Part shown: positions 1,714-14,032 of the stretch, piece by piece | Layout of the letters: each line of letters starts with the position of its first letter | Numbering within the stretch: the stretch's first letter is position 1 | Sequence record: MN850614.1 | DNA from: Escherichia phage adrianh | Length of the DNA: 64,000 nucleotides | Reading direction: 5' to 3' (one strand) | Position numbers and translations under genes: made by a program | The notes under the pieces: generated by a model | Databases searched by the model: none | Told to the model about the DNA's origin: nothing | Seen by the model: the letters and a program-made list of their open reading frames with translations, nothing else

Positions 1714-3858
1714 ATGAACAAAGTACAGATTATTAAAAAGAATGGCTCACTCGAAGAACCTGATATCAAAAAAGTTTTAGCAGCAGTCACAAAGTCAGCT
1801 AATAGGGTTGGGTATAAAGAACTTCCACCAGATGTTACCCAAGCTCTTGAGTCAGCATTTATGAGGATTCTGGTAAAATCTACTAAGCAGAATAATTTAC
1901 TCATTTCAGTAAATGATATTCACAGTATTGTTGAAGGTGCTTTGGCAGAAGTCAATCACGAGATTTATGAGTCTTACTCAACATATAGAAATTACCGTAA
2001 AGAGGTTGCTCAAAATTGGGATGAACTCTACCAGAAGACCAAAGATACACTCTTCTTAGGTGACCGAGAAAACGCTAATTTTGACAGCAGTTTAATTTCT
2101 ACAAAAGGCTCAATTATTCGTGGTTACCTGACTAAAGAAATCTTTAAACAGTACCACCTAACACCAGAGGAACTTGAAGCCATTGAAAAAGGGTTTATCT
2201 ATATCCATGATTTAAGAGACCTGATTTTTGGTGGTATCAACTGTTGCTTGTTTGACATTGGTAAAGTGCTGAAAGGTGGCTTTGAAATGTCTGGCATTGA
2301 ATACTGTGAACCGAAGTCTGTACTGTCAGCCTTACAGGTTATTGGTGATGTAGTTCTTTCAGCAACTGCACAGCAATTTGGTGGCTTTACTTTAGCAGAG
2401 ATTGATAAGGTACTTGTACCGTATGCTAAGAAGTCTCTACGTTACCATGCTGAAAAAGCAACAGCTTATGGTATTCCTAAAGAACATTACCACAACTATG
2501 TCATGGAGCAGCTACAGATTGAATTAACTCAAGGTTTTCAGTCTCTTGAAATGAAGCTCAATACTGTGCCTTGTAGCCGTGGTGATTTTGCATTCACAAC
2601 TTTGACATTCGGGTTACTTGACTCAGATATGTCTAATGAAGATAACCGACTGCAATACATGATTGCAAGCACTCTCCTAGATGTTCGTATGAATGGACAA
2701 GGTAAGAGCAAGAAGCCTGTTGTATTCCCTAAACTGGTTTATATTTATGACCAGAAGAGACATAATGAGAATATCTGTCAAGGCCACCTGTACAGTAAAG
2801 CTATTGAGTGTTGCTCTAAAGCAATGTATCCAGATTTCTTAAGTGTGTCTGGTCATGGTGCTGTAGCTGAAGCTTTTGAGCGTTCTGGTAAGGTAATTTC
2901 CCCGATGGGTTGTAGAGCCTTCTTATCACCATATCTTAACGAGAATGGGGAAGAGTTCTATGTAGGTCGTGCTAACATTGGTGCTGTGTCTTTGAACTTA
3001 CCAATGATTTACCAGTATTCTAAAGAGAATGGTTTAGATTTCTGGAAAGAGCTTGATAAGTACCTAGAGATGATTCGCAGCTTCCACAAGAAACGCTACG
3101 AAATGATTGCTAATATGCCAGCAAGTTCTAACCCTCTTGCATTCACACAAGGTGGTCTGTACAAAGGAACTAAGAAACCTACTGACAAGGTTGGTTGGGA
3201 TATCGTGAAGTCCTTCACAGCTTCTTTTGGGGTTACTGCTCTTGATGAGCTGTCTGTTCTTGCTGAAGGTAAACGACTTCATGAAGTTGGAAGCTATAGT
3301 TTTGCATACGATGTTCTGGCATACATTAACATGAAAACTGAAGAGTTTAAGAATGAAGATGGCTTCTTGTATGCGGTATATGGCACTCCAGCAGAGTCAT
3401 TATGTGGAACTCAGCTAAAACAATTCAGAGATATGTTTGGCGTTATCAAAGGTGTCTCTGACAAGGAATACTTTACAAACAGTTTCCATATGAATGTTGC
3501 AGCAGACATCTCACCATTTGAGAAGCAGGACTTAGAAGAGCCATTCTTCCATATCTGTAGAGGTGGTAGAATCCAGTATGTCAGAGTAGCTAACCCAGAA
3601 AACTTACCAGCACTTAAAAGCTGTATTACAAGAGGGATGTTGAAAGGTTTCTATCAGGGACTTAACTTTGACTTAGCAATCTGTGAACATTGTGGTAACA
3701 GACCAAAGGCTGATGTTGAAGAATGTGAGGTTTGCCATTCACATGACATCTCTGTGATTAACAGGGTGTGCGGATATCTGGGATGGACTAAGATTAAAGG
3801 TGAATCCCGAATGAATGATGCAAAAATCGCTGAGATTCGTGACAGGATTTCTATGTAA
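1714..3858 (+). CDS. nrdD: Anaerobic ribonucleoside-triphosphate reductase (class III)
   Basis: 714 aa; C-terminal Cys cluster CEHCGN..CEVCHSH and glycyl-radical motif RVCGYLG. Confidence 0.9.
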   Translation: MNKVQIIKKNGSLEEPDIKKVLAAVTKSANRVGYKELPPDVTQALESAFMRILVKSTKQNNLLISVNDIHSIVEGALAEVNHEIYESYSTYRNYRKEVAQNWDELYQKTKDTLFLGDRENANFDSSLISTKGSIIRGYLTKEIFKQYHLTPEELEAIEKGFIYIHDLRDLIFGGINCCLFDIGKVLKGGFEMSGIEYCEPKSVLSALQVIGDVVLSATAQQFGGFTLAEIDKVLVPYAKKSLRYHAEKATAYGIPKEHYHNYVMEQLQIELTQGFQSLEMKLNTVPCSRGDFAFTTLTFGLLDSDMSNEDNRLQYMIASTLLDVRMNGQGKSKKPVVFPKLVYIYDQKRHNENICQGHLYSKAIECCSKAMYPDFLSVSGHGAVAEAFERSGKVISPMGCRAFLSPYLNENGEEFYVGRANIGAVSLNLPMIYQYSKENGLDFWKELDKYLEMIRSFHKKRYEMIANMPASSNPLAFTQGGLYKGTKKPTDKVGWDIVKSFTASFGVTALDELSVLAEGKRLHEVGSYSFAYDVLAYINMKTEEFKNEDGFLYAVYGTPAESLCGTQLKQFRDMFGVIKGVSDKEYFTNSFHMNVAADISPFEKQDLEEPFFHICRGGRIQYVRVANPENLPALKSCITRGMLKGFYQGLNFDLAICEHCGNRPKADVEECEVCHSHDISVINRVCGYLGWTKIKGESRMNDAKIAEIRDRISM

Positions 3859-5672: not shown

Positions 5673-5993
5673 ATGAGCAAAGTATATAACACTCGCAAAT
5701 TACAGATTTTCGTACTGTGCCAGTTTATGGCTAAAGAATATAACTTCTACTATTGCGGCACAGGTTTTATTAGCGATGATGATGGTTCATACCTACCATT
5801 TAAAGAAGCTGTGAAGCTCTTTAATGAAGAGAAAAACTCTAAGAAAGATATTGAAAAGGTCAAGCTAACCTATAGCAAGAAAGATAAGAAGATTATCTGC
5901 CTAGATAACTTTGTAAAAGTTACTGGAGAAGCAAAAGAGTTTATGGATGAGAGTGAGATTTCATTCACAAGCATCTTGAAAGTAGCTCAGTAA
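5673..5993 (+). CDS. Hypothetical protein
   Basis: 106 aa ORF. Confidence 0.45.
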   Translation: MSKVYNTRKLQIFVLCQFMAKEYNFYYCGTGFISDDDGSYLPFKEAVKLFNEEKNSKKDIEKVKLTYSKKDKKIICLDNFVKVTGEAKEFMDESEISFTSILKVAQ

Positions 5994-6006
5994 ACAGATA
6001 CTATAA

Positions 6007-6031
6007 GGGAACCTTTACAGTTCCCTTTTTA
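6007..6031 (+). terminator. Rho-independent terminator
   Basis: Stem GGGAAC / GTTCCC then TTTTT. Confidence 0.6.
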
Positions 6032-6044
6032 TTTTGGAGATGAT

Positions 6045-6560
6045 ATGTATCTGTCAAACCTAAAACGTTCTGCTGCAATGTCAGTGTTAAGACTTAGCTT
6101 TGAGGAACGTCAAGAGTTCATTGACTCCCACCAATACGACCCCTCAAACTCCAATCACATGATTCTCTGGAATCGTGAAAGTACTCGTGAAAGAGTACTA
6201 TTCCGTTATTACCCACACTACACTATAGATAACCTGTATGAATGTTTTGTTGTGAAGAACACCATTGCAGTGCTCAATAAGCTTTGTAGATACACAGGTA
6301 GTCAATCCTTCACATTAGGCCACCACAAACCTGTTACAAAGGGTGGTGAGCATCACTGTGCAAACTGGTTTATCCAAACTAAATCTGATAATCAGAAGCA
6401 AGGAGATAGCCTTCTAAACATCCCTAAGATGACCTATGAAGAGCAAGAGAAATATATCAAAAATAATATGCCAGATGTGCTTGACAACAACTATACAGAT
6501 TTGGCAATATCTCTCCTGTTAAAGTTTGAGACAGTTTATAGGGCAACTTACAATGGCTAA
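6045..6560 (+). CDS. Hypothetical protein, possible HNH-type endonuclease
   Basis: 171 aa; GHHKPVTKGGEHHCANW resembles an HNH core; weak. Confidence 0.35.
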   Translation: MYLSNLKRSAAMSVLRLSFEERQEFIDSHQYDPSNSNHMILWNRESTRERVLFRYYPHYTIDNLYECFVVKNTIAVLNKLCRYTGSQSFTLGHHKPVTKGGEHHCANWFIQTKSDNQKQGDSLLNIPKMTYEEQEKYIKNNMPDVLDNNYTDLAISLLLKFETVYRATYNG

Positions 6561-6831
6561 AGAGAAGTGGGAGATTTTACCACTAGTCAGTGAGGGTGGT
6601 AATGGCTGTGAAATGTACATGATACGTGGGCATGTTCCAGAACCAATTGCACTTGAGATGGTAAACAATTTTACAGATGGCTCTTACAAAGATTTAGGAG
6701 AACCAACTGTCAAGCAACAATGGGTTAAACCTGTACCAGACAGCACAGGTAACTGTAGTGTACTTTATCACGTTGTAGACCCTGCAAAATGCAAATCTGC
6801 AATGGCAGTAACAAACGTAACTTTTGATTGA
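6553..6831 (+). CDS. Hypothetical protein
   Basis: Track ORF 6526..6831, first ATG at 6553. Confidence 0.4.
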   Translation: MAKEKWEILPLVSEGGNGCEMYMIRGHVPEPIALEMVNNFTDGSYKDLGEPTVKQQWVKPVPDSTGNCSVLYHVVDPAKCKSAMAVTNVTFD

Positions 6832-6841
6832 GAGAAAAACT

Positions 6842-7723
6842 ATGAAGACATCTATTCGTGTTATAATTCATTCACCGACAAAAGGGTCTCATGAAGAAGA
6901 GTTTAACATCATCCAGTTCCCTTCTGGTGAGATTGGTGGACACTTTTCACAAGAGCTTGTTGATTTTACTGCTTATGCAGCATCATCTATCAACAATGTG
7001 ATTATGATTGTAAAAGGTTATGATAAGGACACATTGTTTGCTGTGGCACTCGCTAAAGAAGCAATTGATGATTTAATTCCTCATGATTATGCCTTAAAGA
7101 CTGTCATCTTTTACTACTTACCAAATGCACGATATGACCGTCACATGTTTAAAGGTGATGCAGCAGCTTTGAAGGTTTTTGCTAAACAGGTTAATGCAAT
7201 GGGGTTTGGTGCAGTATGTGCAGTTGACCCTCACAGCTATGTACCAGATAACCTGTTTGACTGCTTCCAAAGTATTCCTCAAAATGAAATTGCAGTCCAC
7301 TATGCAAATGACCCACTGGTTGATTACTTAGTAGCCCCAGATGCAGGTGCTGCTAAGAAGATTGCAGAGACTGCTAAAGAGGTGGATAAACCATATATCA
7401 CAATGTCTAAGGTGCGCAACCTTAAAACTGGTGAAATTACTGGTATGCGAATCCTTGATGATGTTGATTTGACCGATAAAACTGTTATGATTCTCGACGA
7501 CATCTGTGATGGCGGTCGAACCTTCATAGAAGCAGCTAAACATCTTCGTGAAGCAGGTGCAAAACGTGTGGAACTCTATGTAACACATGGTATCTTCTCT
7601 AAAGGGGTTGAAAACCTTCTTGACAATGGTATTGACCACATCTACACTACAAACTCTTTAGGGGAAGCTAAAGACCGTGGTTTAACACATTATGGTCAAG
7701 TTACTGTAGCAAACCTTGATTAA
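6842..7723 (+). CDS. Prs-family pyrophosphokinase (PRPP synthetase homologue; candidate ADP-ribose pyrophosphokinase)
   Basis: YLPNARYDR, AVDPHS and MILDDICDGGRT motifs align with bacterial Prs; ATG 6842 (track used TTG 6824). Confidence 0.85.
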   Translation: MKTSIRVIIHSPTKGSHEEEFNIIQFPSGEIGGHFSQELVDFTAYAASSINNVIMIVKGYDKDTLFAVALAKEAIDDLIPHDYALKTVIFYYLPNARYDRHMFKGDAAALKVFAKQVNAMGFGAVCAVDPHSYVPDNLFDCFQSIPQNEIAVHYANDPLVDYLVAPDAGAAKKIAETAKEVDKPYITMSKVRNLKTGEITGMRILDDVDLTDKTVMILDDICDGGRTFIEAAKHLREAGAKRVELYVTHGIFSKGVENLLDNGIDHIYTTNSLGEAKDRGLTHYGQVTVANLD

Positions 7724-7732
7724 AACTTTATA

Positions 7733-7755
7733 GGGGGCTTTCAAGCCCCATTTTG
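7733..7755 (+). terminator. Hairpin between Prs-like and NAMPT-like genes
   Basis: GGGGGCTT / AAGCCCC stem followed by ATTTTG. Confidence 0.4.
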
Positions 7756-7769
7756 AGAGAGATTAAAAG

Positions 7770-9551
7770 ATGACTAAATCACTTTATGCAGTACCAGCAG
7801 GTTTAAACGCAGATGCTTACAAATCTGGTCATGTTTACCAGTACCCTAGTGCAACAGATTACTTGATGTTTAACCTGACACCACGTAGTGATAAATGGTT
7901 TAACAGCCCTTTAGCAATTGATGGTGTAGTGGCTTTTGGTATTCAACGTTTTGTTAAAGATTACTTAATAGACCACTGGAACGCCACCTTCTTTGAACGT
8001 GACAAAAAAGAAGCAATTGATGAAATCTTAGAAGTCATGAACGGTGTTCTGGGTAAAGATGCTATTGGTCGAGAACATTGGGAAGCACTTCACGACTTAG
8101 GTTATCTACCAGTTGAAGTATACGCTGTAGAAGAAGGTACAGTTGTCCCTATGCGTGTTCCAATGATTGTATTCCAGAACACTGTTTCAGGTTTCCATTG
8201 GGTAGCGGGATATCTGGAAGATGCTTTCTCTGCTGAGATTTGGAAGGCTTGTACCATTGCAACTATTGCATTGCACTACAAACGTATCTGTAAGAAGTGG
8301 TCTGACCTTACTTGTGACAACGACTTGCATTTACCTTATCAGTGCCATGACTTTGCTATGCGTGGTATGTCCGGCTTTACCGATGACGCATTTAACGCTG
8401 TAGGTCACTTAACCAGCTTTAAAGGGACTGATAGCTTCCCTGCTGTGTATACAGCTAAACGCATCTATGGGCAGTCCTATCCAATTTCCGATATTGGTGG
8501 TTCTGTACCAGCCACTGAACACTCTGTCATGTGTGCAAACATTGCTTGGGAAGGTGGGAATGAGTTAATTGAAGAAGAAAGACGCTTTAAAGGTGAGTTA
8601 CAAACCTTCCGTCGTTTCTTAACAGAAACTTACCCAACTGGTATTGTAAGTATTGTTTCAGACACTTATAATTTCTGGAGAACTGTATCAGTGATACTCC
8701 CAGAACTCCGTAAAGAGATTATGGAACGTGATGGCAAACTGGTAATTCGTCCTGACTCTGGCGACCCTGTACATATTGTCACAGGTTATAAAGCAATCCA
8801 CTTAGAGTGTGCTAAAAAGGCTTATTACGAACACCTAAGCAAGCTTGAAGCCAGCGACACAATGTTGAATACTGTTCTGAACATGAAGCTTGAAAACATC
8901 AACTACGGCATTGCTGGGTGGCTACTGTCAGAAGGTTACGAAATGGTTGTTGACAGAGAAGACTTTGAAGTTGCTGATACAGTGATGTTGAAAAATGCTT
9001 ATATGGTTGGTTCTGCAAACGTTGTAACACGTCCTGTAGCAGAGATTGATGGAGCTATCAAGACACTGTATAACATCTTTGGGGGAACTATCAACTCTAA
9101 AGGTTTTAAAGTACTGGATGAGCACATCGGACTTATTTATGGTGACTCTATCACGTTGGAACGTGCAAACGAAATCTTGAAGCGTTTGTATGAAATGGGT
9201 TTTGCAAGCTCTAACGTAGTGTTTGGTGTAGGCTCTTACACTTACCAGTACATGACTCGTGACACCTTTGCATTTGCTGTCAAAGCAACTCTTGCAAGCA
9301 TTGGTGGTAAAGAGATTATGCTTGCAAAAGACCCTAAAACAGATAGTGGTGTTAAGAAATCTGCCTTTGGTGGTGTAGCACCTATGTGGGATGGTGATAA
9401 GCTGAAAGCTGTAGATGGCTATGGATTCCAGAGTTTTGCAGATGTACTTGACCACCAAGCTTGTGCTTTACGTTTAGTCTTTAGCGACTCTGAGCAGTTC
9501 GGTTATACAACTCTTGGAGATATTCGAAATAATATTGACAAGCAGCTTTAA
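7770..9551 (+). CDS. Nicotinamide phosphoribosyltransferase family protein (NAMPT/NadV-like; candidate Namat)
   Basis: 593 aa; HDFAMRG, FKGTDS, SVPATEHS, IVSDTYN, IRPDSGDP and IYGDS blocks match NAMPT as recalled. Confidence 0.85.
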   Translation: MTKSLYAVPAGLNADAYKSGHVYQYPSATDYLMFNLTPRSDKWFNSPLAIDGVVAFGIQRFVKDYLIDHWNATFFERDKKEAIDEILEVMNGVLGKDAIGREHWEALHDLGYLPVEVYAVEEGTVVPMRVPMIVFQNTVSGFHWVAGYLEDAFSAEIWKACTIATIALHYKRICKKWSDLTCDNDLHLPYQCHDFAMRGMSGFTDDAFNAVGHLTSFKGTDSFPAVYTAKRIYGQSYPISDIGGSVPATEHSVMCANIAWEGGNELIEEERRFKGELQTFRRFLTETYPTGIVSIVSDTYNFWRTVSVILPELRKEIMERDGKLVIRPDSGDPVHIVTGYKAIHLECAKKAYYEHLSKLEASDTMLNTVLNMKLENINYGIAGWLLSEGYEMVVDREDFEVADTVMLKNAYMVGSANVVTRPVAEIDGAIKTLYNIFGGTINSKGFKVLDEHIGLIYGDSITLERANEILKRLYEMGFASSNVVFGVGSYTYQYMTRDTFAFAVKATLASIGGKEIMLAKDPKTDSGVKKSAFGGVAPMWDGDKLKAVDGYGFQSFADVLDHQACALRLVFSDSEQFGYTTLGDIRNNIDKQL

Positions 9552-9565
9552 AAGTATATGATAAG

Positions 9566-9588
9566 AGGCTCCTACGGGAGCCTTTTTA
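9566..9588 (+). terminator. Rho-independent terminator
   Basis: AGGCTCC / GGAGCCT stem then TTTTT. Confidence 0.6.
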
Positions 9589-10476: not shown

Positions 10477-12843
10477 ATGCGCATGGTAAATGACCACGCA
10501 GAAGTGATTAAGAGTTCAACTTCTTTAGAGACGTCTCAAGCACAGATTACAATGACACCCGAAATGTTCAGCCTTTTGAGTTCTGGTGTATACACCTTTA
10601 AAGAAAGGGCAGTTATTCGTGAACTGTCATGTAACGCAGTAGATGCTCAGAAAGAGGCTGGAAAAGAGAACATTCCGTTCCATGTGCATTTACCTACTCG
10701 TTTTGAGCCTTACTTTGAAGTTCGTGATTTTGGAACTGGATTGACTCATGATAAAGTTATGAGTTTGTATCTAAACTACGGGGCTTCTACGAAGAATGAC
10801 TCTAATGACTACATTGGTGCAATGGGTATCGGCTCAAAATCCCCATTTGCAATTGCTCAGTCATTCACAGTGTCCAGTTATGTTGATGGTGTTGTTAATA
10901 AGTACTCTGTTTATCTTGAGAATGGTATTCCTCAAGTAACTAAGCTGACCACCAACCCAACAAAAGAACCTAATGGTTTAGCTGTACGTGTAGCAGTTGC
11001 TGACCATCGTATCTCAAAGTTCTTTGAAGAGGCTGGTCACGTATACTCATACTTTGCTGTAAAACCGGAAAGTAATATCGAGTATGACGATGTATTGTCA
11101 GATATGAACGTCATTGCCCGTGAAGAAGGTGTTTATGATGCCATGATTCATAAGCAAAGCTGGCGTTCTAGTGGTAACAGGACAGAGTTTAATGTAGTGA
11201 TGGGTAACATTGCCTACCCTGTTAACATGGAAGCATTACTTGGTGATGATTTCTTCAAAGTCTTGCCAGAATTTTTCCGTAGGAGCGTAGACCTTGTAAA
11301 CATCTATATGCCTATTGGTTCAGTTGCTATTGCAGCTTCTCGTGAAGCATTGCAGATGAATGATACAACAAAAAATGTTATCATTGAGGCTACTAAAAAG
11401 ATAACTGAAGCAATTACAAAGGATGTTATCAAGAAAGTTAACAACCAACCTACACTCATGGATGCTGCACAGGCTTATGCTGAGTTACGTTTGAACTCAC
11501 GAGAGATGTTTAATGCTGTGTGTCCAAAGCTAGAGTGGGGAGGCATTAAGCTTGATTCTCTGGAAGAAGAATTACTAAACATTCGTCGTGGGATTATCTA
11601 CGCAGAAGACGGCTCAGTCATTTATGAACGTGACGGTAAAGGTAATATCAAGGTTGATAGGAACGGGAACAATATCCCTAAAGTGGATTATCTTTATAAT
11701 CCAGTTGCTTATGTCAAGTTCAACTCTTTAGAGAGTAAGATTCGTGCAACAGCACTTTCCTACACTCAAGAGGCAAGTATGTTCAATATCTTTGGTGCAA
11801 TGCGTAAAAGCCAAATTGAACAGTTTTTGTTCGTGATTAATGACCGTCGTAATAAAAATGGCACTGAGAAGACTGTAGGCCGCAATCAGATTCTGCGTGG
11901 TGCATGTCGAGACTACGCTAACGAGTCAAGCCTGTTCCACAGATACAATGGTATTGTGTTTGTATTCTCGACTGAAAAAGAGTTAGATGATTTAATCAAT
12001 CTACACAAGCTTGATAAAAGTTTGTTAAAGATTGTGAAGATGTCTGATAAGGAACACCATTATCAGCGTAAAGAAGCTGTGAGGGGTGTTGTAAAACTCT
12101 GGAAAGCTGTTCCATCAGAAACTAAAGCTTCATACACAGAGGTGTCAGAAGACCTAGATACAATTGAAGAACCCCAGCTTTATATCAAGGCAGTAGGCGA
12201 CACAGTTGATGGTGAATGTTTTTGCTCATCCCCAGAAGATGTAGCTAAAACAATTGCTAATGTTATAGGAAAAACAGTCTATGTTTTCCGAAAAGCAAAT
12301 TGGAAAAAGATACCAGAAGACTGGATTGAAGTAGATGAGAAGCTATTGAATGACAGCTTAACTGATGTTCACTGGATTAATCATAACAGGTATATGACAC
12401 GTATCTATATGAATGGTGTCCTTGACCTTACAAGTAGTTGGATTATTGCCAGAAACTTTACGTTTAATAACAAGAAGATTTCTCGCGGGTATTGCTATTC
12501 ACGAGATACAAACAAAACCATCTTCTTAGAAGGTAATGAGAATGCTGTTGAGGCAATGTTTGGTAAGATTCAGTATGTGGCTGCACCGTTTGCATACACT
12601 TACACTATCAGTGTTCTTCAGGATTTGAAGTCATGCCTTGACAATGATACAAAACTGTACAAAAAGATTAAGAAAGCGGGTGACCGCATGGTTATCAAAC
12701 TGACAAACTATCTTTCAAAAAGAAAACAAGAAAACTTCTTGCTTTCTCATTTAGATTGGAATAAAGTGTCACCCATCGAAGTGAGTAAGTTCTTAGGTTT
12801 TGATGTGAAGTGTGTTCCAGAAGGAACTACAATTTACGATTAA
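10477..12843 (+). CDS. rIIA: GHKL-ATPase protein, rIIA-like
   Basis: 788 aa; N-box ELSCNAVDA, G1 box DFGTGL, G2 box GAMGIGSKS; large size and position before rIIB-like gene. Confidence 0.55.
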   Translation: MRMVNDHAEVIKSSTSLETSQAQITMTPEMFSLLSSGVYTFKERAVIRELSCNAVDAQKEAGKENIPFHVHLPTRFEPYFEVRDFGTGLTHDKVMSLYLNYGASTKNDSNDYIGAMGIGSKSPFAIAQSFTVSSYVDGVVNKYSVYLENGIPQVTKLTTNPTKEPNGLAVRVAVADHRISKFFEEAGHVYSYFAVKPESNIEYDDVLSDMNVIAREEGVYDAMIHKQSWRSSGNRTEFNVVMGNIAYPVNMEALLGDDFFKVLPEFFRRSVDLVNIYMPIGSVAIAASREALQMNDTTKNVIIEATKKITEAITKDVIKKVNNQPTLMDAAQAYAELRLNSREMFNAVCPKLEWGGIKLDSLEEELLNIRRGIIYAEDGSVIYERDGKGNIKVDRNGNNIPKVDYLYNPVAYVKFNSLESKIRATALSYTQEASMFNIFGAMRKSQIEQFLFVINDRRNKNGTEKTVGRNQILRGACRDYANESSLFHRYNGIVFVFSTEKELDDLINLHKLDKSLLKIVKMSDKEHHYQRKEAVRGVVKLWKAVPSETKASYTEVSEDLDTIEEPQLYIKAVGDTVDGECFCSSPEDVAKTIANVIGKTVYVFRKANWKKIPEDWIEVDEKLLNDSLTDVHWINHNRYMTRIYMNGVLDLTSSWIIARNFTFNNKKISRGYCYSRDTNKTIFLEGNENAVEAMFGKIQYVAAPFAYTYTISVLQDLKSCLDNDTKLYKKIKKAGDRMVIKLTNYLSKRKQENFLLSHLDWNKVSPIEVSKFLGFDVKCVPEGTTIYD

Positions 12844-12922: not shown

Positions 12923-14032
12923 ATGACTACTAAAACTAAAGCACAGATTGACGCAGAAATTTACGAACTGGTTAAAGAAGGTAAGCTGACTAAAACAGCT
13001 ATTGCACAGAAGTTCAATACTTCAACCCGTTCAGTTGGTCGTGCTGTAGAGCGTCATGAAGCAACCTTAAAAGGTAAGAAAAAGGTAGCTTCTAAACCAG
13101 CTACGAAGACTTTGAAGCAAGTTGCTAAATCAGTTAAAAAGAAAGCTGACAAACCAGTTGAAAAGGTTGTTAAAGAGCCTGTACAGAAAGCTCCGGTAAA
13201 TAAACTGCATGAAGCTATGCAGAATGGCAACCAGATTGAGTACATGATTACTGGCGACTCTGTTATCATGACTTTCGGTGCAGATTCTGAAATCGTTGAA
13301 TCTACCCATCCGAACTACAAAGAAATCGTGATGGCTGTTGTATCCGGTGAGTATAAGAAAGCTTTCGAACTGATGAACATTCGTAAGTCTATCGAAAACT
13401 TCACTCAGGGTGCTATCACCATCAAAGGTGACAAGTTATTCTATGGTGCTGTTGAGATGCGTTCTACTCTGGTTGACCGTATTCTTCACATGATGAAGAC
13501 TGGAGATAAGGGTTTTGAACGCCTTGTGATGTTCTTCGAAAAACTGATGGAAAACCCATCTAAAGACTCTGTAGAACAACTTTGGGGATTCGTATCTCAC
13601 CTTGATGTTGAAATTGATGAAGAAGGCTACATCATTGGTTGGAAGAAAGTCTCTACTCATGAAGGCAAGCTGGTTGACTCCCACACCTACAGAGTACCTA
13701 ATGATTTGGGTAACATTGTAGAAATGCCACGTTGGATGGTTGATAATAACCGTAACGTGACTTGCTCTCAGGGTCTTCACGTTGGTGCTTGGGATTATGT
13801 TCGTTGCTTCTCAGGTGATACAATCCTGAAGGTTCGTGTCCATCCACGAGATGTTGTATCTGTTCCAACTGATTACAACGATATGAAGATGCGTTCGTCT
13901 CGTTATGAAGTTGCAGCAATCGTTGATAATCAACGTAAAGTGCTGAAAGAATGGGATGGCAAGACTGAAGCTTTGCATGTCATCGTTGGCACTGCTGGTG
14001 AACTAATCTCCCAACGTAAACGTGAAATCTAA
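12923..14032 (+). CDS. rIIB: rIIB-like protein (by synteny)
   Basis: 369 aa, directly downstream of rIIA-like gene; Lys-rich linker; no diagnostic motif. Confidence 0.35.
   Translation: MTTKTKAQIDAEIYELVKEGKLTKTAIAQKFNTSTRSVGRAVERHEATLKGKKKVASKPATKTLKQVAKSVKKKADKPVEKVVKEPVQKAPVNKLHEAMQNGNQIEYMITGDSVIMTFGADSEIVESTHPNYKEIVMAVVSGEYKKAFELMNIRKSIENFTQGAITIKGDKLFYGAVEMRSTLVDRILHMMKTGDKGFERLVMFFEKLMENPSKDSVEQLWGFVSHLDVEIDEEGYIIGWKKVSTHEGKLVDSHTYRVPNDLGNIVEMPRWMVDNNRNVTCSQGLHVGAWDYVRCFSGDTILKVRVHPRDVVSVPTDYNDMKMRSSRYEVAAIVDNQRKVLKEWDGKTEALHVIVGTAGELISQRKREI

Follow-up and report, generated by a model that had tools for sequence, protein, structure and literature searches.

A Prs-like and NAMPT-like gene pair of Escherichia phage adrianh as a probable NARP1 operon for NAD+ reconstitution

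Escherichia phage adrianh carries a gene for a Prs-family pyrophosphokinase directly followed by a gene for a NAMPT-family phosphoribosyltransferase, and the locus raises the question of what the two enzymes make together. They may rebuild NAD+ from the products of a host defence, they may feed a classical salvage route through nicotinamide mononucleotide (NMN), or they may supply precursors for phage nucleotides. The DNA analysed, called the window here, is a stretch of 64,000 nt from sequence record MN850614.1, and all positions are those of the whole stretch. An earlier note, written from the sequence alone, had described the two genes as adjacent with a short hairpin between them and had proposed an NAD+ reconstitution module that counters host immunity. 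Both open reading frames lie exactly where that note placed them, on the + strand and 46 nt apart.

6842..7723, + strand: adps, predicted ADP-ribose pyrophosphate synthetase (Adps), Prs family, 293 aa, with an ATG start and the stop codon TAA at 7721-7723
7770..9551, + strand: namat, predicted nicotinamide ADP-ribose transferase (Namat), NAMPT fold, 593 aa, with the catalytic His251 and R327 conserved

The analysis led to the conclusion, held with a probability of roughly 0.92, that the pair is the two-gene form of NAD+ reconstitution pathway 1 (NARP1) in a phage of the genus Felixounavirus.

The identity of the genome was established by megablast. The region matched 258 phage records at 90-96% identity, almost all of them Felixounavirus (Ounavirinae), from phages whose hosts are Escherichia, Salmonella, Shigella and Citrobacter. 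For window positions 1-25000 the best record was Escherichia phage JohannRWettstein (Bas63, MZ501086.1), with 97% coverage and 94% identity. By these matches the window is a Felixounavirus genome and a close relative of Bas63. The two genomes are collinear through nrdB, glutaredoxin, nrdD, nrdG, small open reading frames, bas63_0077 to bas63_0080, further small open reading frames, rIIA and rIIB, and the adps-namat pair sits just downstream of the nrdB, glutaredoxin, nrdD and nrdG genes. Window 6842-7723 is the positional orthologue of bas63_0079 (both 293 aa, 78% amino acid identity), and window 7770-9551 is the positional orthologue of bas63_0080 (both 593 aa, 98%).

Bas63 is the phage in which NARP1, consisting of Adps and Namat, was discovered as genes 79-80 (Osterman et al., bioRxiv 10.1101/2024.02.11.579819). 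Osterman et al found that Bas63 without the operon became sensitive to SIR2-HerA and that NAD+ loss was then deeper, that the operon still protected in a host without pncC and nadR, and that ADP-ribose pyrophosphate (ADPR-PP) was detected by metabolomics only when wild-type Bas63 met the defence system. A genome-wide knockout study of Bas63, independent of the discovery work, found that deletion of g79 or g80 alone lowered plating on Sir2-HerA by four to six orders of magnitude (printed as '104-106') and that complementation restored it (bioRxiv 10.1101/2024.10.10.617714). In both studies genes 79 and 80 were dispensable on hosts free of defence systems and needed on Sir2-HerA hosts (bioRxiv 10.1101/2024.02.11.579819; bioRxiv 10.1101/2024.10.10.617714). 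Orthology to this genetically tested operon is the decisive evidence for reading the window pair as NARP1, and together with the clamp residues of the window Namat, described below, it supports the earlier proposal of an NAD+ reconstitution counter-defence module over salvage through phosphoribosyl pyrophosphate (PRPP) and NMN.

The enzymology was done on homologues from Bacillus phage SPbetaL1, because Bas63 Adps could not be purified. SPbetaL1 Adps pyrophosphorylates ADP-ribose (ADPR) with ATP in vitro. For the alternative substrate the figure legend of Osterman et al says ribose-5-phosphate, and the body text says 'with PRPP and ATP' and reports no measurable product. SPbetaL1 Namat makes NAD+ from ADPR-PP and nicotinamide, and prefers ADPR-PP over PRPP (bioRxiv 10.1101/2024.02.11.579819). 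From the homology we infer that the window allele pair has the same activities as these studied homologues. In the mechanism this suggests, a host NAD+-depleting defence of the SIR2, TIR or SEFIR type would cleave NAD+ to ADP-ribose and nicotinamide. Adps would then pyrophosphorylate ADP-ribose at the C1'' of its ribose, with ATP as the donor, to give ADPR-PP, and Namat would swap the pyrophosphate of ADPR-PP for nicotinamide, yielding NAD+ directly with no NMN intermediate and no NMN adenylyltransferase (NMNAT). The rebuilt NAD+ would permit phage replication in cells that carry such defences. By analogy with the Bas63 orthologues, the window pair would be expected to rescue its phage in this way.

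The product of the second gene matches the Pfam families NAPRTase PF04095 (3e-34) and NAMPT_N PF18127, PHROG 448 (1e-201) and the model NF006629 (469 bits, cutoff 405), and it is 98% identical to Bas63 gp80 and 46.6% identical to SPbetaL1 Namat. Against sequences in the PDB, the Namat crystal structures scored E = 5e-128 and human NAMPT 1e-41. An AlphaFold2 model of the window Namat had a pLDDT of 93 and a pTM of 0.91, and its best fold matches were 9w5x and 9w5w, both Namat crystals, with a TM-score of 0.94 normalised by target length. The comparison with characterised Namat and NAMPT structures that the earlier note had suggested therefore finds the Namat crystals as best match in both fold and sequence. 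These two PDB entries were confirmed to be SPbetaL1 Namat, whose operon is OQ921341.1 (Adps 272 aa, Namat 491 aa). All 21 of the SPbetaL1 Namat active-site and NAD+-contact residues that were mapped (nicotinamide, NMN and AMP contacts) are kept in the window Namat, two of them as conservative substitutions. His251 and R327 (SPbetaL1 R306) are among those kept, and both are invariant across 46 homologues.

A structural paper of 2026 defined a Namat 'selectivity clamp' (NAR 2026, PMC12774641). The third residue of the clamp loop is Arg, Lys or Tyr, and if it is Lys or Tyr, the fourth residue stacks, as in Bas63 (PMC12774641). Both parts of the clamp were located in the window.

7887..7898, + strand: selectivity-clamp loop, S40-D41-K42-W43, with Lys third and an aromatic residue fourth, the arrangement described for Bas63
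9231..9263, + strand: selectivity-clamp helix motif, G488-S-Y-T-Y-Q-Y-M-T-R-D498, the published Namat adenine clamp

The window Namat thus has both published features, GSYTYQYMTRD in the helix and K42/W43 in the loop. In true Nampts the aligned helix site reads GGALLQKVDRD (Xanthomonas, Xcc Nampt) or GAQTYQRNTRD (Haemophilus ducreyi NadV), and both clamp aromatics, at positions 3 and 7, are missing from the two proteins. The H. ducreyi NadV, a non-phage protein with PDB entry 9ke8, served as the Nampt control. The earlier note had held that sequence cannot separate the two specificities. For NAMPT and Namat this did not stand, as the published clamp motif is present in the window protein; for Adps and Prs, which have no published signature, it did.

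The clamp bears on the possibility that the pair is a classical salvage module, in which a true PRPP synthetase and a true NAMPT would make NMN and the host's NadR, or PncC and NadD, would complete NAD+ in a route like that of NARP2. The database labels, ribose-phosphate pyrophosphokinase and nicotinamide phosphoribosyltransferase, speak for such a route, as do the in vitro synthesis of NMN from PRPP by Namat homologues and the presence of NadR and NadD in E. coli. However, the window Namat has the adenine clamp that true Nampts lack. The Bas63 orthologues, moreover, protect without pncC and nadR, and the operon-dependent metabolite is ADPR-PP and not a product derived from PRPP. Classical salvage seems highly improbable on this evidence, to which the first gene and its surroundings add.

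As observations on the clamp motif elsewhere, 496-aa chromosomal homologues that are about 47% identical and have a Namat-type GSYTYQYNTRD were seen in Klebsiella michiganensis, Cronobacter, Phytobacter, Kosakonia and Erwinia billingiae. Although labelled nicotinate phosphoribosyltransferase in their annotation, they fit the bacterial NARP1 homologues that have been reported.

The adps product matches the Pfam families Pribosyltran PF00156 (1.2e-11) and Pribosyl_synth PF14572 (2.9e-09), as well as PHROG 619, 'ribose-phosphate pyrophosphokinase' (7e-97). It narrowly passes the broad subfamily model TIGR01251, with 120 bits against a cutoff of 113, which is a further point for a true PRPP synthetase. 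It misses every NCBIfam Prs equivalog cutoff widely, however (PRK00934 103 against 296, PRK01259 92 against 297, others lower), and this, with no phage NMNAT found, counts against classical salvage. The window Adps is 78% identical to Bas63 gp79, 31% to SPbetaL1 Adps and 24% to E. coli Prs (b1207). The catalytic lysine is kept as K190 (nt 7409-7411), equivalent to K162 of SPbetaL1 Adps and K194 of E. coli Prs. A solved Adps structure was not found in the PDB, where the best sequence matches were archaeal class III Prs (E = 6e-18).

Bas63 Adps is one seed of the published Adps clade, and a Namat homologue lies nearby in 97% of the genes of that clade (bioRxiv 10.1101/2024.02.11.579819). The window has a Namat homologue within 10 genes of adps, since namat begins 46 nt downstream on the same strand. 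The assignment of the first gene as Adps is based on its orthology to Bas63 gp79, the adjoining Namat, the conserved K190 and the failed Prs equivalog models, and by these the window protein would belong to the phage Adps clade and not to cellular Prs.

The position of the operon, just downstream of the nucleotide-metabolism genes nrdB, glutaredoxin, nrdD and nrdG, and the Prs-family domains of the first product could also suggest a module for nucleotide supply, in which a Prs-like enzyme raises the level of PRPP from which the phage makes its nucleotides and plays no part in immunity. Such a module would leave the tight pairing with a clamp-bearing Namat unexplained, as it would the fact that nearly all genes of the Adps clade (the 97% given above) adjoin a Namat homologue. 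SPbetaL1 Adps, when tested with ADPR and a non-ADPR substrate, gave product only from ADPR, and the dispensability of Bas63 genes 79 and 80 in the absence of a defence, with their necessity on Sir2-HerA hosts, also points away from a general role in nucleotide metabolism. Nucleotide supply is an extremely improbable account of the pair.

Genes that would mark another pathway or another form of NARP1 were looked for around the pair. Scans with Pfam found no match to the cytidylyltransferase, Nudix or NadR families in ten neighbouring proteins. With E. coli NadD and NadR as queries, tblastn of the window and of the complete Bas63 genome gave no match with E under 0.8; a NadM-type seed (KVP40 NatV) was not tried. 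The Bas63 annotation holds no NMNAT, and no record of Felixounavirus size was seen among the phage NadR matches listed. The earlier observation that no NMNAT is recognisable nearby was thus borne out by both kinds of search. The further argument, that the missing NMNAT favours the ADP-ribose route, is weak taken by itself, as both NadR and NadD are available from the host.

No match to a Macro-domain phosphatase, Adpp (PF01661, PF14519, PF20016), was found from about six genes upstream to four genes downstream of the pair, and no match to the RyR-domain glycosidase RyDEP (PF02026) was found in the neighbouring proteins. With no NMNAT, Macro-domain or RyR-domain gene accompanying it, the pair has the plain two-gene form of NARP1. 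Adpp lets NARP1 cope with the ADPR-1''-phosphate made by the aRES defence, and because it is missing here, the window phage is predicted to be sensitive to defences of the aRES type, which make this compound. As an observation on partner genes in another phage, records of Vibrio phage ICP1 match Adps, Namat and E. coli NadR (36% identity); by sequence, this phage seems to have a NARP1-like pair as well as a NadR-type NMNAT.

Several points weigh against the assignment to NARP1. A published sequence signature that splits Adps from Prs was not found, and because of this the Adps assignment leans on orthology and on the linkage to Namat. Within the N-terminal 180 residues, the window Adps and the Bas63 Adps of the genetic work disagree at 34% of positions. 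The biochemistry comes from the SPbetaL1 homologues, and their identity to the window proteins is no more than 31% for Adps and 47% for Namat. Namat also retains some PRPP-to-NMN activity in vitro (PMC12774641).

The divergence of Adps is confined largely to one part of the gene, which makes adps a mosaic.

6842..7381, + strand: divergent (mosaic) N-terminal 180 codons of adps, delimited by amino acid and DNA comparison with Bas63

Residues 1-180 are 66% identical to Bas63, and residues 181-293 (113 aa) are 96.5% identical. DNA identity between the window and Bas63 is about 94% upstream of adps and through namat. It falls to 64-79% at about 6801-7300, the strongly divergent core in the 5' half of the gene, and in the remainder of adps it is 87-93% (mean about 90%). 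Records of adps in the phage database form two classes. The class of the window allele, at 90% identity or more, has about 154 members; about 94 other records are 60-80% identical to the window allele, a band that includes Bas63. Of the two alleles seen in Felixounavirus, the window has the more frequent one, and phage HMD-P10 shares it at 99% identity. Between genera the N-terminal part of Adps also diverges faster; in Bas63 and Citrobacter phage Michonne it is 78% identical, and the C-terminal part is 88% identical. Relaxed constraint together with recombination is therefore the economical reading of the mosaic, and an arms race may still have had a part in the divergence.

The second unusual feature of the pair is the length of the NAMPT homologue. 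The earlier note had put it at about 100 residues longer than typical, and the comparison agrees: the window Namat has 593 aa and SPbetaL1 Namat 491 aa. The surplus is distributed over residues 4-5, 46-49, 258-261, 268-278, 340-397, 409-427 and 564-565, and its main part forms an inserted subdomain directly after the conserved RPDSGDP strand.

8787..9050, + strand: inserted Namat subdomain, aa 340-427 (88 residues), not in SPbetaL1 Namat, H. ducreyi NadV or human NAMPT

In the model, residues 340-427 are predicted to be an ordered alpha/beta unit, and a structural relative of this unit was not detectable. The linker at the insertion site is a hot-spot among homologues, with about 30 residues in the enterobacterial and Bacillus proteins and 85-106 in Ounavirinae-like phages, and two metagenomic proteins have an unrelated insert of similar size there. 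The accessible part of the structural paper on Namat (PMC12774641) mentions no insertion. A near-identical insert is present in Bas63 Namat, and for this reason the insert is compatible with NARP1 function.

The allele and the insert might together make the window pair a variant of NARP1, in which one or the other alters the substrate range (for example towards ADPR-1''-phosphate or cyclic ADPR derivatives), the regulation or the sensitivity to a host inhibitor. Two discrete N-terminal classes of Adps within genomes that are otherwise about 94% identical would fit such a variant, as would an ordered insert with no structural relative and the existence of defences, such as aRES, that escape plain NARP1. 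Yet Bas63, with its near-identical Namat insert, behaves as an ordinary NARP1 phage, the Adps alleles of window and Bas63 do not differ in the phosphate-binding loop or the catalytic residues, and the faster divergence of the N-terminal domain between genera may reflect no more than relaxed constraint and recombination. We consider a variant of this kind very unlikely. A milder version, in which the Namat insert and the Adps N-terminal alleles are arms-race adaptations with a function of their own inside an otherwise textbook NARP1, is also unlikely, if less strongly so. Possible roles for the insert or the Adps N-terminus would be to evade a host inhibitor of NARP1, to dock the two enzymes to each other, or to widen the substrate range to modified ADP-ribose.

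The two genes seem to be expressed from one transcription unit, which contains two further genes. The elements at its borders and in the spacer are the following.

5976..6027, + strand: promoter-like TTGAAA-17-TACTAT abutting a terminator-like hairpin (6005-6027), from sigma-70-like hexamers and a terminator scan
7734..7749, + strand: intergenic 6-bp GC-rich hairpin GGGGCU-UUCA-AGCCCC, then AUUUUG, in the 46-nt spacer
9535..9586, + strand: promoter-like TTGACA-16-TATGAT over the end of namat, directly followed by a strong terminator-like hairpin at 9563-9586, the downstream unit boundary
6045..6560, + strand: 171-aa protein, phrog_3500, orthologue of bas63_0077 (95%), in the same terminator-bounded unit and not part of NARP1
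6553..6831, + strand: 92-aa protein, phrog_4726, orthologue of bas63_0078 (99%), a context gene

The element at 5976..6027 is the probable upstream boundary of the unit that holds adps and namat. At the other end, the hairpin at 9563-9586 has 10 bp followed by a T-run, folds with z = -3.76 (0/200 shuffles fold as well) and has the identical sequence in Bas63. Michonne, which belongs to the genus Mooglevirus, has annotated terminators at both equivalent places. The terminator-like hairpins thus enclose four genes, those of the 171-aa and 92-aa proteins, adps and namat, and the unit is conserved across genera.

The stem of the spacer hairpin is kept in Bas63 and the loop is changed. The 61-nt segment around it, 7715-7775, folds with z = -1.84, and the terminator scan made no call. 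The hairpin was considered as a terminator that splits adps and namat into separate transcripts, but with its weak fold, its short T-run and no call in the scan, read-through is more likely. It is no strong terminator and could be a weak attenuator or an element of RNA stability.

As a separate observation, three composites of this kind occur in the window (5976-6027 on the + strand, 9535-9586 on the + strand, and 31413 to about 31352 on the - strand), each with sigma-70-like hexamers 0-3 nt from a GC-rich hairpin with a T-run. The stem GGCTCC...GGAGCC is common to two of the three.

The two upstream genes were examined as candidates for a new NARP1 accessory and rejected. Homologues of the 171-aa protein in Stephanstirmvirinae adjoin a UvrD helicase and not NARP1, and for want of linkage to NARP1 in other phage families the protein is not counted as part of the system. 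Its Bas63 orthologue, gp77, has been reported to counter the Ec67 retron, and the preprint names gp77 GIY-YIG; the scans gave only a weak HNH-like match for the 171-aa protein (phrog_2214, 8e-5). Bas63 g84 and g85 (rIIA and rIIB) have been reported to counter qatABCD. Orthologues of g84 and g85 were seen downstream of namat, at window 10477-12843 and 12923-14032. To judge from these orthologues, the NARP1 operon is in an anti-defence neighbourhood (6045-6560; 10477-12843; 12923-14032).

Elsewhere in the window two further observations were made in the comparison with Bas63. The nrdD gene, at 1714-3858, is a single unbroken open reading frame of 714 aa; its Bas63 counterpart is interrupted by an intervening sequence with a homing endonuclease (bas63_0067, joined from two parts, and bas63_0068). 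On the + strand at 36148-41046, 24 tRNA genes form a cluster collinear with that of Bas63, and the tRNA at 40874-40966 was called Ser(gct) by ARAGORN and is annotated as Arg in the Bas63 record.

NARP1 is already known and experimentally characterised, and the window pair is a further member of it. The pair is not novel, because the system is known and was found in a close relative, Bas63 being the discovery phage and about 94% identical in DNA. The case confirms that NARP1 can be recognised from sequence alone. It also indicates that in about 250 Felixounavirus records the labels ribose-phosphate pyrophosphokinase and nicotinamide phosphoribosyltransferase are to be replaced by Adps and Namat. 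With a view to phage therapy, this phage is predicted from its operon to resist NAD+-depleting defences of the SIR2, TIR and SEFIR types and to be sensitive to aRES-type defence.

Among known systems, NARP1 of Bas63 is the closest. It shares with the window pair the genus, the place between the nrdG region and rIIA, the gene lengths, the Namat insert, the stem of the spacer hairpin and the downstream terminator. It differs in Adps, which is only 78% identical, and most of the differences lie in the first 180 aa (66%). NARP1 of Bacillus phage SPbetaL1 has the same two-gene order, the catalytic Lys of Adps, the NAD+-contact residues of Namat and the clamp motif. The third residue of the clamp loop is Arg in SPbetaL1 Namat, where the window Namat has Lys followed by Trp, and the 88-residue insert is missing from SPbetaL1 Namat. 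The SPbetaL1 genes overlap, whereas the window genes are parted by the hairpin spacer.

NARP2 of Vibrio phage KVP40, made up of NadV (a Nampt) and NatV (an Nmnat), resembles the window pair in that it restores NAD+ for a phage against NAD+-depleting defences and uses an enzyme of the NAMPT fold. NARP2 runs from PRPP to NMN and needs a phage NMNAT; the window, in contrast, is without an NMNAT and its Namat has the adenine clamp. Two extended forms of NARP1 share the Adps/Namat core: NARP1-AP of Vibrio phage Gary, with Adps, the Macro-domain phosphatase Adpp and Namat, and the RyDEP-associated NARP1 of mycobacteriophage DyoEdafos. Neither a Macro-domain protein nor a RyR-domain protein is found in or beside the window operon. 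The cellular enzymes, E. coli Prs (b1207), human NAMPT, Xcc Nampt and H. ducreyi NadV, are alike in fold and catalytic chemistry. The window Adps is set apart from E. coli Prs by its low identity (24%) and its failure at the Prs equivalog cutoffs, and the window Namat is set apart from the Nampts by the aromatics at clamp positions 3 and 7.

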